DNA of 64,000 bases. It comes from an uncultured cyanobacterium. GTDB lineage: Bacteria > Cyanobacteriota > Cyanobacteriia > PCC-9006 > JAAUQQ01. Below the pieces are notes generated by a model, which did not search any database, had not been told where the DNA came from, and worked only from the letters and a program-made list of their open reading frames with translations. Location: the NCBI GenBank assembly GCA_963718615.1, contig OY970368.1, positions 2,208,001 to 2,272,000 of the forward strand, written 5' to 3'. The first letter of the stretch is position 1, and each line of letters opens with the position of its first letter. A program made the position numbers and the translations under genes. This document shows, piece by piece, positions 36,306 to 41,777 of the stretch.

Positions 36306-36316
36306 GTTGAGGCTTC
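36306..36316 (-). other. Degenerate attC R'' box of the methyltransferase cassette
   Basis: GTTGAGGCTTC overlapping the stop codon; matches cassette start GTTAGGCTTC (minus strand, 37127-37118) in inverted orientation with a 1-nt insertion. Confidence 0.45.
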
Positions 36317-37029
36317 TAATCCAGCGCCGTTCGCTTTGAAAACCAAGCGTGAATGAAAAGAGTTTGGAAAAACAACACCGGAGTATCGAATCCACCCGCT
36401 GCGATAATTGCTTCAATTTCCGGTGGGGTTAAAGCTGCGAGGTGAAGACTCCAGGCAGTGCGCATTCTTTCGATATCTTCTTCACCCCAGCCAGAGCCTC
36501 CGAGCATTCGCAGCCAAACTTCAATCAAACTTTGATGAATCGGAGCCGACAGACCGAGAACTAGATCTGAACTGATCAAAATTCCACCGGGGTAAAGGCG
36601 TTGTGCGATTTGATTGAAAAAGTGGCTCCGCTCTGCCGCTTCTTTCAAGAATTGAGAGACCAAAAGGCAAGTCGCCGCATCGAATGGATCAGAAGCGGGC
36701 AGCGAGTCGAGATAGCCTTCGTGGAACGTGCAACGTGAGGTAATTCCATTTTCTTCGGCTTTTTGACGGCAGATATCCAGCATTGCAGACGCAGGCTCAA
36801 CCGCTGTGAAGTGACATTGCGGAAAGACTTGTGCCAGAGCGATCATTTCCGTTCCGGTACCGACACCGACACACAGAATTCGCGCCTCAGCCGGAAGCTC
36901 GGCGAAAATCAGGCGTGTTAACGAAAAGAGTGCTTCGCGTGAAGATGCCCAACCAGCGGTTTTCTCGTCGTAGGAAGCCGCAGCTTTTTGGTTGTCAAAT
37001 GGCATCATGGCTGACTGTTGGTTCTGCAT
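36316..37029 (-). CDS. Class I SAM-dependent methyltransferase (cassette gene)
   Basis: ILCVGVGTG motif I, VEPASAML, FDAATC, LYPGG. Confidence 0.9.
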   Translation of the reverse strand: MQNQQSAMMPFDNQKAAASYDEKTAGWASSREALFSLTRLIFAELPAEARILCVGVGTGTEMIALAQVFPQCHFTAVEPASAMLDICRQKAEENGITSRCTFHEGYLDSLPASDPFDAATCLLVSQFLKEAAERSHFFNQIAQRLYPGGILISSDLVLGLSAPIHQSLIEVWLRMLGGSGWGEEDIERMRTAWSLHLAALTPPEIEAIIAAGGFDTPVLFFQTLFIHAWFSKRTALD

Positions 37030-37207
37030 GATGGAAATAAAAGATGCTCCAACTAAATTTTACAAATCACTTTCGTTCATTCACACGCATATCTCCTCAA
37101 CAAACTCAAACTCCTGTGAAGCCTAACGTTGCCCATCACCCGCCGTAGATAACCTTTGCAATAACTCATTAACTTTTAGCGGTCGGTGTGCATGGGCGTT
37201 ATGGGGG

Positions 37208-37505
37208 GACGGGGGAGAAGAAACAGGAAGAGACGACTATGCATTGGACGACACAGAGGATGTCTACTAACATACCGAATCGCTCATCCCTCTCCCATTC
37301 GCGAATTTGACAGAACCGCATAAAGTCAAGAAAGGAGAGAATCTGCCAGCTAGTCGGGACGACTATGCAGCGCCAGTCAGAAGATGACTACTAACATATC
37401 GAATCGCCCGTCCAGCCAATCCAATCGCGTACCGACGAATCCTCAGGGAGTAGGGAAAGACTCTTTCCATAATCTCTTCGCTTTGCGAGCGGGGGCAGAC
37501 TCTCC
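37208..37505 (+). ncRNA. Putative bridge RNA with two target-type loops and one donor-type loop
   Basis: Two repeated stem/internal-loop units (37232-37283, 37358-37407) and a third loop with CCTCAGGG and CCATAAT matching the IS end junction. Confidence 0.7.
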
Positions 37506-37534
37506 ATCCAACAAAACACCCTCAATCTAGCACA

Positions 37535-38800
37535 ATGAAACTCAACCTCAGCACAACCGTTTATGCTGCCTATATCGGCATTGATTGGGCAGACCGCAAA
37601 CACGATATTGCTCTCTATGACTGCCAGAACGAGACCTGGGAGCAATCCACCATTCAGGCCACTCCTCAGGCGATCGCGGATTGGGTCAACCAATTACGAA
37701 AACTCTATGGAGAGCGCAAGCTTTTGGTGGGATTGGAGCAGAAACGTGGACCTTTGCTCTATGCCCTGTGCCAATATGAGAATCTGGTACTAGTGCCCAT
37801 CAATCCCAGAACTGTGGCGAACTATCGAAAAGCGTTTCAGCCCTCTCGGGCCAAATCAGACCCGATTGATGCCAAGCTGATTATCGAATTGATGCAAAAG
37901 CATGGGGAGAAGCTCGATATTTGGACAGCGGGTTGCCCGAAGCATCGTGCGTTGAGACAATGGGTTGAATCCCGTCGGATGTTAGTCGGGGAGAAGGTGC
38001 GGCTCACCAATCGCATTACTGCTGCGCTCAAATCCTACTTTCCCCAAGTGCTCGATTGGTTTGAAGACAAAGACACGACGGCGTTTTGTGAGTTTCTCGA
38101 ACGATTTCCCAATCTACAGGCTGCTCAAGCGGCCACAGCTCATGAATTGAGACAGTTCTTTCGTCATCATCACATCATTCGTAAGGCAACCATTCAACGA
38201 CGCACTCAGCAAATTCAAGACGCGGGTCCAGCCTTGACAAAAGATGATGCGATCATCGTCCCCGCCCAAGCTTTGATGTTGGGTTTAGTGGCTTTATTGA
38301 AAGTTGTTTTGTGTCAGTTGATTATCTTTGAACAGCAAATCGAATCGTTGTTTGAATCTCTACCGGATGCAACTCTCTTTCGGGCATTACCCGGAGCAGG
38401 TCCACATTTGGCACCTCGATTACTGGCAGCGTTTGGGGAAGACCGTACTCGCTTTGACTGTGCTCAGGCTTTTCTGAGTTACATCGGCATTGCACCGGTT
38501 AAGGAAGAAAGTGGCAAGAAACGTTGGGTCCATTGGCGTTGGTCTTGTCCTATCTTTCTGAGGCAAACTTTTGTCGAGTGGGTCACCCATGCTCGGTCTC
38601 GCTCGCTCTGGTCACAGGCATTTTATCAACAGCAACGACTAGCGGGTAAATCTCATCAAAAGGCTATTCGTGCTTTGGCTTATAAATGGGGACGAATTCT
38701 TTGGCGGTGTTGGCAGGATAGGACTCCTTATGATGAGGAAAAGTATCTCGCTGCTCTCCGGTGCAAAAACTCTCCTTTGGTCGCTCTTTTACCGGCTTAG
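37535..38800 (+). CDS. IS110-family DEDD recombinase/transposase
   Basis: IGIDWAD, GLE, KSDPIDA (DEDD RuvC-like); LPGAG...IGIAPVKEESGK (Tnp domain with catalytic Ser). Confidence 0.95.
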   Translation: MKLNLSTTVYAAYIGIDWADRKHDIALYDCQNETWEQSTIQATPQAIADWVNQLRKLYGERKLLVGLEQKRGPLLYALCQYENLVLVPINPRTVANYRKAFQPSRAKSDPIDAKLIIELMQKHGEKLDIWTAGCPKHRALRQWVESRRMLVGEKVRLTNRITAALKSYFPQVLDWFEDKDTTAFCEFLERFPNLQAAQAATAHELRQFFRHHHIIRKATIQRRTQQIQDAGPALTKDDAIIVPAQALMLGLVALLKVVLCQLIIFEQQIESLFESLPDATLFRALPGAGPHLAPRLLAAFGEDRTRFDCAQAFLSYIGIAPVKEESGKKRWVHWRWSCPIFLRQTFVEWVTHARSRSLWSQAFYQQQRLAGKSHQKAIRALAYKWGRILWRCWQDRTPYDEEKYLAALRCKNSPLVALLPA

Positions 38801-38976
38801 GTCTCTGTCTTTTTGCTCGATTGAACTGCTTTAGGTTTTGAACCAATCGAATACGAAAAATACGAAGATGGCTCTGATAGCTCAGTTCGGCTGAGACTCA
38901 AAACTGACTATCAGGTGGTTTGTGCTGGCTTCAATTCGCTCGGATATTACATCAGAGTTATTTTGTATCTTCTCTA

Positions 38977-39005
38977 TTGACCCCGTCCGCCTCAGGGCCT
39001 ATGTT
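38977..39005 (+). promoter_or_regulatory. IS right-end -35 box and junction promoter
   Basis: TTGACC (38977-38982), exactly 17 nt, then TAT; gives TATTAT when joined to the left end, TATGTT in the integrated state. Confidence 0.65.
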
Positions 39006-39066
39006 ATGCTGCGTTGCCATCTTTAGCTTTCGTTCTCAATCACTAATGCCTCAAGTGCTGAAACTG

Positions 39067-39306
39067 TCAACTTTCCTCATAAGCCTGTAAGAATTCATCC
39101 CGTGATATACCTGACTGAGTACAAATTGTTCTCAGTGTAGATCCCTTGATCTGTTTGTGGTTAGGTAGGGTTAAAGGTGTTGTCGTACCATCTTCATTTT
39201 CTCGAACCATTGAAATGTGCTCCCGCTCTCTAACGACTTGAAATCCTAAAATTCCGAGTGCTCGAATGACTTTTGCTTTGGGCAAATCAACCGGAAACTT
39301 TGGCAT
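39067..39306 (-). CDS. hicA: HicA-family toxin
   Basis: LGILGFQVVREREHISM...LPNHKQIKGSTLRTI. Confidence 0.88.
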   Translation of the reverse strand: MPKFPVDLPKAKVIRALGILGFQVVREREHISMVRENEDGTTTPLTLPNHKQIKGSTLRTICTQSGISRDEFLQAYEES

Positions 39307-39537
39307 TTAAAGACTTGCCTCCGCAACAAATGCTTCTAGCACAGGCGATTCTGGTTCAAGTACTTCTACCCCAAAAGTTTCAACATGAAATCGAATGGCT
39401 GATCTGACATCTGCTAAAGCTTCTTCATAGGTATCACCTTCGCCAACAACAACACCTTGAATTCCTAATGGATAGGCGATATACCCATCTGAGTGTCGTT
39501 CAACAATAATCTTGATGTTCTTCATTTTTATCTCCAA
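39307..39537 (-). CDS. hicB: HicB-family antitoxin
   Basis: GYIAYP...GEGDTYEEALADVRSAIRFH. Confidence 0.88.
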   Translation of the reverse strand: MEIKMKNIKIIVERHSDGYIAYPLGIQGVVVGEGDTYEEALADVRSAIRFHVETFGVEVLEPESPVLEAFVAEASL

Positions 39538-39557: not shown

Positions 39558-41777
39558 TTAAAACCTATCCACTTTCTTTTTGTAAACCTCTTCCATTGGA
39601 AGCAGTAATTTTCCCAAAATTTCACTTTTTATAGTGGAATCAATATTGGAAGTGTTTATCCCACGCAGCAGCAATAAATGAGCATCATAATACAGTCCGA
39701 GAACTTCCTTTTGAGATTCACTAAAATTCCACTCACGACCTAAACTGCGATATTGAAGAATCACATCCCTTAGAGCGTCAGCCCATTTCTTATGATTTGT
39801 GTTACACCACTCACGATGTAATTCTTTGTTCTCCCTCCATTCAGGTATTTGTACTTTCAAGCTCAGAAGCTCTTTCTCTAACTCAAAACTATTAACTGAA
39901 TGTACAGTCAAATGATTAACGAGAATTCTATTTAGGAAATCTAATCCAAGCCAGGGTGATTGTGTGTTGTCATCCGGCTCTACCCACCAAAACCCATAAT
40001 GACTACGCACATAAGCAACTATCAAATTCATATCTAAAGAAAATTCACCACTATTGCGGTAACAGGCTGTTTCTCCTATATCCTCATTACTAACATCATT
40101 GCCCATAAAGAAGGGATTGCGCTCTCTTGTGTTTTCTTCTTTAAGCTGATTGTCAAGAGCCATACATAGAGGTGGAAATACGCTATAGCTTATTTCTGAA
40201 GTAAAAACACCATTTAACGTTATGTTGTAATAAAGAAGGAAAGCACGAATGGCTTCTGGTAAATACTGCAATGTTAATGAGCAAGACTTTTGGTAAATCC
40301 AGGTTAAGAATTGCTGCAAATCTGAATCTTCAGATATAAGTCTATCAATTTCTTCCTTTAAAAGAAGGGTGAATTGATTTATAAATTCAGTTGACTCAAT
40401 GGCTATTTTCAGTACTTCCCACCATTGTCTATTAGAAACCTTCTTGGCTAAATTTTTTAACTCCTGTAAGTCACGCTTTTTAATAAGTCTTCTGGCTATA
40501 AAGTATTCTTGAAAAGTTAGATGAGAAAAGGAATAAATTCCCTGCGCTCTCTGAATTAATAATCCATGTTGTGCTTCAATTGCTCCTAAGACTGCTCTCC
40601 CGTCCTGAACTGAAATCTCTAGAAAATCTGATATATCTGTAACCAGTTCCCTATGTTCAAATAAGATATACTGCGATTGCTCAAATTTTTTTGCTGCCAA
40701 GTAACTTAATAGCTCTGTTTTCTGGTCTGCCGACAAATCTCGATAAATGCTGTCGCGCTCTATCTCTCGCACTTTATCCCATCTTTCTAGCAGTAAATCT
40801 AGCCCCTCTTCGTAAAGCCGAGAACGCTTTGAATAAAATTTTCCTGTTTGGTGAAACACTGCACAGGCTAAACTCAGAAGAATAGGCGTGGTCATTAATC
40901 GACGAATGGATTTATTGTCATAGTGTCCTAATCTACTGAGAAATTCTTGGGATTTTTCTTTTCCTTCAATAAGACTAGATGTGATTGCTGTAAACCAATG
41001 GACTACAAAATTCTCTAACTGTTCATCACTAAAGTCTGCAATCTCTACATAATCAAAATTGTCAAATCGTGACTCCTGATTTTGTATGCGGCAGGTTATC
41101 ACTAACTGATTTTGAGGGTGAGTGCGCGCGAATGACTTGATTTGTGTAGAGATTTTCTTACCGTTTGCTCCAGTTACCTCATCCAATCCATCTAATAGAA
41201 TCAATGCTCTACCGTGGTTCAAGATAAAGTTGGTTTCAGATTCAGCCAATTGCCAATGCTGGGCTAAGTAAGATTCCAATCTATAGTTAACGCTGTATCC
41301 ATCATCCACAAACTCTCGAAGCTTAATAAACACTGGAATGCGATGTGACTGTAAGCGTCCGTCATTACATTCCGTAATAATATGCTGTAGGTAGGTTGTT
41401 TTTCCTGATCCTGGTTTGCCAACCACCATCAAGTTTTTGTCTCTTGACAAACAATCTAAACCTGATATTCGTTGGAGTTGTTTACATAATCCGACTCGGT
41501 CTAGGCTACGACTATAAGAGTGCTGCTGGGCTTCCTGATTAAAATCTTGCCATAAATCATTCAGTTCAGATTTGCGGCTACTGTTAAGCCCTTCAAGAAT
41601 ATTCACATCTACAAACAATTCACTTAATGGCACCCAATGATCTATTCCCCACAGAGGCATTGTGCCATGCAAGCGTTGGATGTCGTCATGAAAACGAGAT
41701 CGTATTTGTTGTACTAATTCATCTAAGGAAATCTGTGGGGTGCTTAACTTTGTCGGTGCCCCTCCCGACGAGTTCAG
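39558..41777 (-). CDS. NACHT-domain NTPase (start unclear; frame open up to the upstream gene's stop)
   Basis: Walker A GKPGSGKTT, Walker B LLDGLDE, ITCR, TPILL, FSHLTFQEY. Confidence 0.88.
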   Translation of the reverse strand: MNSSGGAPTKLSTPQISLDELVQQIRSRFHDDIQRLHGTMPLWGIDHWVPLSELFVDVNILEGLNSSRKSELNDLWQDFNQEAQQHSYSRSLDRVGLCKQLQRISGLDCLSRDKNLMVVGKPGSGKTTYLQHIITECNDGRLQSHRIPVFIKLREFVDDGYSVNYRLESYLAQHWQLAESETNFILNHGRALILLDGLDEVTGANGKKISTQIKSFARTHPQNQLVITCRIQNQESRFDNFDYVEIADFSDEQLENFVVHWFTAITSSLIEGKEKSQEFLSRLGHYDNKSIRRLMTTPILLSLACAVFHQTGKFYSKRSRLYEEGLDLLLERWDKVREIERDSIYRDLSADQKTELLSYLAAKKFEQSQYILFEHRELVTDISDFLEISVQDGRAVLGAIEAQHGLLIQRAQGIYSFSHLTFQEYFIARRLIKKRDLQELKNLAKKVSNRQWWEVLKIAIESTEFINQFTLLLKEEIDRLISEDSDLQQFLTWIYQKSCSLTLQYLPEAIRAFLLYYNITLNGVFTSEISYSVFPPLCMALDNQLKEENTRERNPFFMGNDVSNEDIGETACYRNSGEFSLDMNLIVAYVRSHYGFWWVEPDDNTQSPWLGLDFLNRILVNHLTVHSVNSFELEKELLSLKVQIPEWRENKELHREWCNTNHKKWADALRDVILQYRSLGREWNFSESQKEVLGLYYDAHLLLLRGINTSNIDSTIKSEILGKLLLPMEEVYKKKVDRF

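Follow-up and report, generated by a model that had tools for sequence, protein, structure and literature searches.

Within the 64,000-nucleotide (nt) stretch analysed here, hereafter the window (contig OY970368.1 of an uncultured cyanobacterium, positions 2,208,001 to 2,272,000), an insertion sequence (IS) of the IS110 family interrupts an integron attC site. The element encodes a transposase, or bridge recombinase, and its non-coding left end carries two predicted target-binding-loop (TBL) modules, referred to as unit 1 and unit 2, together with one predicted donor-binding loop (Table 1). According to Pfam, the protein possesses an N-terminal DEDD RuvC-like domain (PF01548; 96.2 bits, E value 2.2e-27, cut-off 29, residues 14-170) and a C-terminal transposase domain (PF02371; 59.4 bits, E value 4.6e-16, cut-off 21.3). 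It also matched the NCBIfam model NF033542, 'IS110 family RNA-guided transposase', with 176.4 bits against a cut-off of 140. With all three models exceeding their cut-offs, the placement of the element in the RNA-guided IS110 family by the initial annotation, which had been made from the letters and open reading frames (ORFs) of the window, is upheld. The IS621 recombinase (8wt6_A) was a distant match to the protein (E value 3.1e-10), with 'eESGkk' aligned to 'yESGss'.

The limits of the element were set by comparing the junctions of copies in the same genome with empty sites. The left junction reads ..TGCATGGGCG-TT|ATGGGG and the right junction ..CCTCAGGGCC-TAT|GTTATGC; one T at either end (37200 or 39002) can be assigned to the flank or to the element alike. 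Relatives share these ends, ATGGGG..CTCAGGGnCTAT. The non-coding region upstream of the transposase gene spans 334 nt (37201-37534) versus 202 nt downstream (38801-39002). A longer non-coding region upstream of the gene is given as a criterion of the IS110 group in PMC11187229. The 'no or short subterminal inverted repeats' of that group are not what is seen in this element, whose ends contain an 11-nt pair (37204-37214 and 38981-38991) that is 91% complementary and lies 3 and 11 nt from the ends; such repeats are usually ascribed to IS1111.

attC sites are imperfect palindromes of ~57-141 nt that form hairpins with bulged bases. The insertion point lies between the L' arm and the R' box, directly 5' of GTTRRRY. 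Both the RYYYAAC (R'') and the GTTRRRY (R') boxes are present at the window site and in empty sites, the latter reading ..TGCAxxGGxx-TT|GTTAG. Under DNA parameters, five empty sites of 86-89 nt folded as hairpins with bulged bases. An nhmmer profile detected 16 attC-like sites of the window's sequence class in the genome, scattered and without long arrays. The window site is a lone attC, being the sole site of its class in the window and not part of an array beside intI. A crude attC pattern scan mixed true and false sites and served for examples only. The genome encodes an intact IntI (TIGR02249; 443.8 bits versus a cut-off of 265; G000:C1:948656-949594), and this cut-off was exceeded in 0/14 control genomes. 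On this evidence, the insertion target is a genuine integron attC site. Four decayed intI genes were also found (G000:C1 3859666-3860405, 4646232-4646402, 4712672-4713822 and 1907122-1907277), and copies or fragments of the element lie a few kb to ~25 kb from each intact or decayed integrase.

All copies use the same position of attC. The right junction was recovered in 31 of 44 loci examined, and all 31 read TAT|G, with a flank of GTTAG in 21, GTTAT in 5, GTTGG in 2 and another or a cut sequence in 3. The TAT seen at both junctions had hinted at a 3-nt core; this was ruled out, as TAT precedes the R' box in 0/10 aligned empty sites. A 2-nt core does not fit both junctions. As none of the ten empty sites has TAT before GTTAG, the donor and target share at most one T, with no 2-3-nt core, and we infer that this lone T is the crossover base.

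Table 1. Features of the attC site and of the IS110-family element (window coordinates)
Feature	Position	Strand	Sequence or remark	Basis
Left part of interrupted attC	37121..37200	+	R'' box GCCTAAC 37121-27; L'' and L' arms; left-target 8-mer TGCATGGG 37189-96, then CG-TT to insertion point	
IS110-family insertion sequence	37201..39002	+	1802 bp	Junctions of own-genome copies versus empty sites
Left subterminal inverted repeat	37203..37215	+	GGGGGGACGGGGG	91% complementary repeat; relatives GGAGACG / CGTCTnC
Unit 1, free-standing TBL module	37227..37285	+		Covariance model, pair counts, guide/flank permutation
Unit 1 outer stem	37227-36 with 37280-85			
Unit 1 left guide	37240-47		UGCAUUGG	
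Unit 1 inner hairpin	37250-64			
Unit 1 right guide and handshake	37267-74		CUAACAUA	
-10-like hexamer	37321..37326	+	TAAAGT (TAnnGT)	7 nt upstream of closing stem
Closing stem 5' arm	37334..37347	+	GGAGAG-AA-UCUGCC	Own-versus-foreign duplex test
Unit 2, TBL in canonical position	37356..37409	+		Covariance model, covarying outer stem, guide/flank permutation
Unit 2 outer stem	37356-62 with 37404-09			
Unit 2 left guide	37366-73		UGCAGCGC	
Unit 2 inner hairpin	37376-88			
Unit 2 right guide and handshake	37391-98		CUAACAUA	
Donor-binding loop	37435..37480	+	Outer stem ACGAA / UUCG; inner hairpin	Covariation
Left donor guide	37441-48		CCUCAGGG	
Right donor guide and handshake	37464-72		(UUU)CCAUAA	
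Closing stem 3' arm	37494..37505	+	GGCAGA-CUCUCC	Own-versus-foreign duplex test
Transposase / bridge recombinase gene	37535..38800	+	421 aa	PF01548, PF02371, NF033542, IS621 likeness
Right end of element	38977..39002	+	-35-like TTGACC 38977-82; repeat CCCCGTCCGCC 38981-91; left-donor 8-mer CCTCAGGG 38990-97; terminal CC-TAT	
R' box, right target	39003..39009	+	GTTATGC, fits GTTRRRY	Right junctions of relatives

Guide-region architecture and its conservation

The initial annotation had described a duplicated module in the left end, at 37232-37282 and 37358-37406. Its strings lie at these positions: GACGACTATGCA is repeated exactly at 37232 and 37358, and 37254-37289 and 37378-37413 form a 36-nt repeat with 86% identity. 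The covariance model R1 scored 68 bits for unit 1 (2245224-2245290 in contig coordinates) and 75.3 bits for unit 2. Applied to the whole genome, R1 gave 11 matches, all within copies of the element. A second family member in the same genome, 72% identical, also carries both modules.

Relatives were collected by scans of genome and metagenome collections, which yielded 62 and 80 loci, respectively; further searches with left-end DNA in 8 genomes of the order and 401 of the phylum added few. Most loci were from filamentous cyanobacteria, and more distant relatives (~45-55% identity) were from proteobacteria and soils. The 11 named genomes searched contained 1-5 copies each. Among 96 related loci, R1 gave 124 matches: a pair of modules, ~125 nt apart, was present in 48 loci, a single module in 26 and none in 22, and no locus had three. 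In a quick tree of 49 recombinases, the 25 two-module rows all fell within one 26-row group that included one nested loss (L022) and had a support of 91 in the Shimodaira-Hasegawa-like approximate likelihood ratio test (SH-aLRT). Single-module cyanobacterial relatives, then proteobacterial-type relatives, lay outside this group. On this distribution, the second target loop is derived, belongs to a single clade and has been retained stably.

Across 50 aligned units, the module comprises a 9-pair outer stem that includes a single bulge and a 4-pair inner hairpin, with a 5' strand of 13 nt and a 3' strand of 15 nt between them. Paired cells amounted to 95.4% versus 84.8% after shuffling (0/500 shuffles), and to a maximum of 53% when the partner was slid. 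Pairing was maintained through changes on both sides: the inner stem contains A-U in 27 units and U-A in 23, and G-C and A-U are swapped in the outer stem. The pairs of the duplicated module thus covary, and the duplication, present in half of the related loci, goes beyond chance.

To characterize the stems, we compared the pairing energy of each arm with its own and with foreign partners, with permutations, in an alignment of 33 two-unit left ends (A2). The closing stem paired at -21.0 kcal/mol with its own arm versus -17.2 kcal/mol with foreign arms (0/5000 permutations), the own arm being better in 29/33 rows. The corresponding values were -11.97 versus -9.79 kcal/mol for the unit 2 outer stem (0/5000), -11.43 versus -10.82 kcal/mol for the unit 1 outer stem (47/5000) and -8.83 versus -7.79 kcal/mol for the inner stem of the donor loop (0/5000). 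The outer stem of the donor loop was uninformative because it is invariant. A pairing of the extreme left end with CUCUCC, proposed by RNAalifold, was rejected: its energy was -9.42 kcal/mol with own arms versus -9.8 kcal/mol with foreign arms, and 4874/5000 permutations reached the own value. The fold of the single sequence had a z-score of -1.1, which is uninformative alone.

These comparisons agree with the stem proposed in the initial annotation, in which GGAGAG..TCTGCC (37334-39, 37342-47) pairs with GGCAGA-CTCTCC (37494-37505) to enclose unit 2 and the donor loop, leaving unit 1 outside. By its predicted structure, unit 2 with the donor loop is a canonical two-loop bridge RNA clamped by a ~12-bp closing stem. 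Unit 1, lying outside this covarying stem, would be a free-standing extra target loop. The -10-like hexamer TAnnGT upstream of the closing stem occurs in 31/33 aligned left ends, as read by eye in columns 127-132 of A2. It was not called by a sigma-70 scan, which demands a -35 element. It might act as an internal promoter from which the two-loop bridge RNA is made.

A duplication origin of the two units is evident from their 86% likeness over 36 nt in the window. Unit 1 might therefore be no more than a neutral, functionless leftover of the tandem duplication, and the collapse of the pair to a single hybrid module in one lineage (L022, described below) fits such a reading. We regard it as extremely improbable: the pair persists in 48 loci, among which the recombinases diverge by as much as ~35%; the right guide hardly varies and the stems are preserved; and the left guide, which does vary, does so together with the flanks, as described below. 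Moreover, the two 8-nt left guides of an element were never identical, differing in 24/24 distinct pairs at 1-4 of 8 positions.

Target and donor guides

In the window, the left loop strand of unit 1, TGCATTGG (37240-47), matches the left flank TGCATGGG (37189-96) at 7/8 positions and that of unit 2, TGCAGCGC (37366-73), at 5/8, the values given in the initial annotation. The right strand, CTAACATA (37267-74 and 37391-98), is the reverse complement of TATGTTAG and fits the right junction TATGTTAT at 7/8 positions, in agreement with its proposed complementarity to the core side of attC. As RNA, this right guide, CUAACAUA, is nearly invariant among relatives, is common to both units and is antisense to TAT|GTTAG. 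Most left guides read UGCAU(U/G)GG for unit 1 and either UGCAGCG or UCCAACG for unit 2. The unit 1 guide starts with TGCAT in 37/52 two-unit rows, and the unit 2 guide with TGCAGC in 28 and TCCAAC in 15.

We then took the 10 nt that follow GACGAC-NN, compared them with the 18 nt at the end of the left flank while permitting a gap of 0-4 nt to the insertion point, and permuted the guides among 73 unique insertion/guide rows, of which 52 were two-unit and 21 one-unit. Unit 1 matched its own flanks at a mean of 6.135 of 10 positions versus a null mean of 5.604 (standard deviation (sd) 0.127), a value reached by 0/10000 permutations. For unit 2, the own mean was 5.904 versus 5.475 (sd 0.122; 5/10000). 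In the 29 rows in which unit 1 matched at no more than 6 positions, unit 2 gave 6.31 versus 5.54 (sd 0.178; 0/10000). The one-unit relatives gave 7.05 versus 5.92 (sd 0.236; 0/10000). The loops thus vary with their targets among homologues, a point on which the initial annotation had staked its interpretation. The excess over foreign guides was limited to guide positions 1-8, the same 8-mers that had been chosen in that annotation. Because the excess stops after position 8, the left guide ends 4-5 nt from the crossover.

Single elements were also found at both types of site. The element whose unit 1 and unit 2 guides are TGCATTGGGT and TGCAGCGCTA occurs at L086, where the flank TGCATTGG.. fits unit 1 at 8/8 positions, and at L087, where the flank TGCAGCGC.. 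fits unit 2 at 8/8. Another element, with guides TGCATGGGAT and TGCAGCGCCA, fits through unit 1 at L034 (8/8) and through unit 2 at L043 (6/8). Among the copies of a five-copy element in one complete genome, L062 fits unit 1 (7/8), L036 and L070 fit unit 2 (6/8), and L072 fits neither.

It is conceivable that only unit 2 selects new targets, and that unit 1 is a TBL-only RNA that helps with excision or with the initial 'direct-transfer' step at the left junction where the element resides, or that titrates the recombinase. The left guide of unit 1 would then track attC arms merely through the need to recognise the resident flank. Such a role would accord with the position of unit 1 outside the covarying closing stem, with a report that TBL-only RNAs of other IS110 elements support only the left target-right donor (LT-RD) transfer step (preprint 10.1101/2025.10.25.684509), and with the requirement of excision for flanking target sequence (PMC11187229). 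In addition, inspection by eye revealed no -10-like motif upstream of unit 1 inside the element, so that unit 1 may arise only from the junction promoter described below or from read-through. The resident flank, however, still had to be chosen. Of the 52 two-unit rows, unit 1 fits better in 27, unit 2 in 21, and 4 are ties; a match of at least 8/10 is reached by unit 1 in 14/52 and by unit 2 in 5/52. Since unit 1 fits better in 27/52, unit 2 alone explains unit-1-type sites poorly. Unit 1 also keeps a full right guide for the R' box, which would be unneeded for the left junction alone. We consider a role for unit 2 alone in target choice to be unlikely.

Two further loci bear on the guides. 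An 87-bp left-end fragment of the 72% member (G000:C1:1920899-1920986, minus strand; L016/L178) lies beside an attC left arm that matches the unit 1 guide of that member at 10/10 positions. The fragment stops right after the DNA of the unit 1 right guide (..CTAACATA) and continues without a gap into TGTTAGCGG, as if the DNA from the TAT in the guide DNA to the right-end TAT had been deleted, through microhomology or a recombinase half-site event. At L038 (1166-1478), unit 2 has changed in both of its strands: its left guide, CGCAACCAG, is identical to the left flank at 9/9 positions, and CTTGCATC replaces CTAACATA as the right guide. The L038 flank is not attC-like; the locus is a single copy, and its contig ends before the right junction. 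L038 looks like a natural retargeting through unit 2 alone.

That the 87-bp fragment ends exactly in the right-guide DNA of unit 1 marks this position as recombination-prone, and the element does possess subterminal inverted repeats. Both facts would suit modules that act as DNA, for example as subterminal repeats bound by the recombinase, with the likeness to the flanks arising by recombination with, or copying from, attC. The module and closing stems, however, keep their pairing through two-sided changes, which is expected of RNA or of single-strand structure and not of a duplex protein site. The strand logic is also that of a bridge RNA: in IS621, the target loop reads the left flank in the same sense with its 5' strand and the right flank in antisense with its 3' strand (PMC11208160), as for the left and right guides here. 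A purely DNA-level function is accordingly very improbable.

The donor loop has a geometry like that of the target loops, with CCUCAGGG followed by CC-TAT|. The initial annotation had noted that CCTCAGGG at 37441-48 is identical to the right end at 38990-97; this left donor guide, CCUCAGGG as RNA, matches that end at 8/8 positions. Among 23 distinct pairs, the longest common substring of donor guide and right end averaged 7.48 for own versus 6.72 for foreign pairs (sd 0.19; 5/10000 permutations); the test kept two rows with a mis-parsed end, which count against the match. Donor guides of type CCUCAGAGG pair off with ends of type CCTCAGAGG.

The 3' strands are best described in terms of junctions. 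CCATAAT is present at 37467-73, as annotated, but its complement ATTATGG does not occur across the predicted joined ends (..CCTAT|ATGGGG); the fit is to the junction of left flank and IS instead. CCAUAA is antisense to TT|ATGG of that junction, and TTATGG (6/7) is found at 37199-37204. Similarly, the empty target TT|GTTAG is a poorer fit for the CUAAC-AUA of the target loops than is the right junction, TAT|GTTAG. In IS621, handshake guides beside the right guides pair with the non-cognate top strand after exchange, and pairing with the cognate strand at those positions blocks the reaction (PMC11208158). Because the junction sequences fit better than the empty target or the joined ends, handshake-type pairing would account for both the target and the donor 3' strands.

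Copies, relatives and neighbourhood

Besides the window copy, the genome contains the second full-length member (72% identical, 1814 bp, ORF open), three internally deleted copies and several end fragments. The deleted copies share a common internal deletion that joins query position 523 to 1354 (3852975-3853986, 3845755-3846752 and 4716675-4717592 of G000:C1; 971 and 897 bp measured). They retain the whole guide region and both ends, and each occupies a different attC site. This suggests a non-autonomous derivative mobilised in trans.

An outward-facing promoter-like sequence, TTGACC-17-TATGTT (38977-39005), is formed by the right end and the first bases of the attC R' box. The sigma-70 scan called two sites, this one across the IS/flank junction included, versus 2.6 expected from shuffles. 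TTGAC lies upstream of the junction in 29/31 right ends. With the element integrated, such a site could drive the cassette downstream; once a circle has formed, it could drive the guide region and transposase gene. The neighbours of the insertion, all on the minus strand, are genes for a SAM (S-adenosylmethionine)-dependent methyltransferase (36316-37029), a HicA-family toxin ORF with a small upstream partner ORF (39067-39537) and a NACHT/STAND NTPase (39558-41672). These are typical cargo of cassette-like or defence regions.

Some relatives depart from the two-module arrangement. L022 (82% protein identity) has a single hybrid module at 1260-1500, with the position and 3' tail of unit 1 and a unit-2-like guide and inner stem, and is without the 5' arm of the closing stem. 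This module probably represents a collapse of the pair through recombination between the two repeats. The metagenome relatives L089 (~520-545) and L091 (~870-915) each have a short insertion (25-45 nt, rich in CGCTACGC) in the guide region, which in one of them follows unit 2 and in the other interrupts the donor loop's 5' strand.

Eight of the distant relatives (L112, L114, L117, L119, L120, L122, L052 and L071; ~45-55% identity) possess a single target loop and a single donor loop, with ends that start with TTATAG. A CTAAC-type right guide together with attC-like flanks was found in L112, L114 and L117 (CTAACATAC or CTAACACAC) and in L120 and L122 (CTAACTTAC). L119, L052 and L071 have no CTAAC in that loop strand. 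Because some one-loop relatives combine such a guide with attC-like flanks, attC homing may be older than the duplication, as shown by this part of the distant group only.

A proposed two-target-loop bridge RNA and its relation to known systems

Together, these data point to an element with two interchangeable target loops and one donor loop, which would confer two target specificities at attC sites; we consider this probable. In the proposed mechanism, the recombinase homes to attC and would insert the element between the L' arm and the R' box (..TT|GTTAG). The 5' end of the element would encode a two-loop bridge RNA, consisting of unit 2 and the donor loop, plus an extra upstream target loop, unit 1; we infer that RNA is expressed from this guide region. 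The 3' strand of both target loops, CUAAC-A-UA, is predicted to base-pair to the top strand at the conserved R' box, its last bases pairing with the incoming donor end after strand exchange in the manner of a handshake. The different 8-nt left guides of units 1 and 2 would match the variable L' arm. In the donor loop, CCUCAGGG would match the right end, and CCAU-A-A the left end plus the incoming target T. The two specificities would widen the range of attC variants open to the element.

Unit 1 might function in cis, as part of a long transcript, or be made as an RNA of its own that contains only a TBL. Because covariation leaves unit 1 out of the closing stem, a single multiplexed RNA is as compatible with the data as a bridge RNA accompanied by a distinct TBL-only RNA. 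The recombinase tetramer needs one target loop and one donor loop, so either target loop could combine with the single donor loop. A free-standing target loop is mechanistically plausible in view of reports on other elements: split target and donor guide RNAs work for ISCro4, according to a review (PMC13604230), a 58-74-nt target-loop RNA, the short seekRNA, suffices for ISEc21 (PMC11187229), and TBL-only RNA is abundant and partly active in another IS110 element (preprint 10.1101/2025.10.25.684509). A fuller formulation, to which we lean slightly, is a natural dual-address system in which an independently folded second target loop, fixed throughout a clade of cyanobacterial IS110 elements, shares one donor loop, in cis or in trans, so that a single recombinase would be programmed for both target classes simultaneously. 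This would make it the first natural multiplexed or split-guide bridge RNA and, in addition, an independent origin of attC homing outside the IS1111-attC group.

Several observations weigh against two interchangeable loops. At the window's own site, the match is only 5/8 for unit 2, and even unit 1 reaches only 7/8. Only 19/52 two-unit insertions match either 10-nt window at 8/10 or better, 33/52 matching neither window at this level; 34/52 reach 7/10 or better. The copies at L028, L072 and L180 fit neither guide, and the spacing from the left-guide match to the insertion point varies by 1-3 nt between sites. The permutation signal of unit 2 is weaker than that of unit 1, and the counts for the two units (5/10000 and 0/10000) are not true probabilities because the test ignores the relatedness of elements and of attC sites. 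The cross-table of guide and site classes defines its classes with the aligned flank and is partly circular. The key branch of the recombinase phylogeny has its SH-aLRT support of 91 from a quick tree only. Rfam contained no family matching the guide region; the sole match was a chance snoRNA (E value 2.9) inside the ORF. Finally, the pairing model is extrapolated, as the geometry departs from that of IS621: the left guides stop 4-5 nt short of the crossover, and there is one shared base and no 2-nt core.

Overall, the interpretation put forward in the initial annotation, that two target-loop modules with different left guides cover variable attC sites, is supported by the comparative and computational evidence, with guide/flank covariation in both units and single elements at either type of site.

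The system has much in common with IS621 and the IS110-group bridge RNAs (PMC11208160, PMC11208158), including a DEDD and serine recombinase and an RNA encoded in a long left end. The internal loops likewise carry a 5' left guide of the same sense and a 3' right guide that is antisense, one loop serving the target and one the joined IS ends, and, like handshake guides, the positions beside the right guides match the non-cognate partner. Unlike IS621, which has one target loop, the element has two, the extra loop lying outside the closing stem. Its 8-nt left guides end 4-5 nt from the crossover, whereas those of IS621 run through a 2-nt core; donor and target share one base (T), and 11-nt subterminal inverted repeats are present. 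At 421 aa, the recombinase is also larger than the 326-341 aa of IS621-type enzymes, to which it is distantly alike (E value 3e-10).

The IS1111-attC group is reportedly the subject of Post & Hall 2009 and Tetu & Holmes 2008. Its members ISKpn4, ISPst6 and ISPa25, which have a seekRNA (PMC11187229), resemble the present element in that an RNA-guided DEDD enzyme targets one end of attC in one orientation and subterminal inverted repeats are present. In that group, however, the transposases are of 330-350 aa, the guide RNA lies downstream of the transposase gene, and the order of top- and bottom-strand matches is reversed (PMC11187229). The window element has its RNA upstream, a 421-aa protein and the IS110-group order, and one seekRNA is described per IS1111-attC element. 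Because RNA position, protein size and guide order place the clade in the IS110 group, its attC homing seems to have arisen separately from that of the IS1111-attC group.

The TBL-only RNA, the short seekRNA and the split guides of ISCro4 are precedents for a separate target loop that can load the recombinase and join recombination (10.1101/2025.10.25.684509, PMC11187229, PMC13604230). In those systems the separate loop is either a shortened version of the same loop or the product of an engineered split, whereas here the second loop is separately encoded, has a different guide and is evolutionarily kept. ISPpu10 and other IS110 elements that target repetitive extragenic palindromic (REP) sequences (preprint 10.64898/2026.03.19.712850) similarly have their target in a repeated, hairpin-forming DNA element. 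Unlike the present case, a single target loop and recognition of a DNA stem-loop are reported there. In the literature searched, we found no description of IS110-group attC targeting in cyanobacteria, nor of this clade.

Published accounts treat bridge RNAs as bispecific, having a single loop for the target and a single loop for the donor. The literature searched, outside which lay the supplementary structures of PMC11208160, PMC11187229 and preprint 10.64898/2026.10.21.760802, held no description of a bridge RNA with two target loops. In the review PMC13604230, the plural 'target-binding loops' denotes the two loops, donor-binding and target-binding, of a single RNA. Longer guides and diverse folds are reported in a 2026 survey of 32,190 bridge RNAs, and an extra target loop is unmentioned in the section consulted.

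If true, a conserved design with two target loops would mean that a recombinase can draw on alternative target guides, and that the target loop works as a free-standing module in nature, beyond engineered split guides. It would also show how a site-specific element copes with a variable family of targets, by keeping a single guide for the constant box and a choice of two for the variable arm, and might serve as a template for bridge editing that is dual-target or multiplexed. The analysis also identifies, for the integron field, an IS110-group lineage of cyanobacteria and of remoter relatives whose insertions interrupt attC right at the R' box, and which lies beside intact and decayed integrases.

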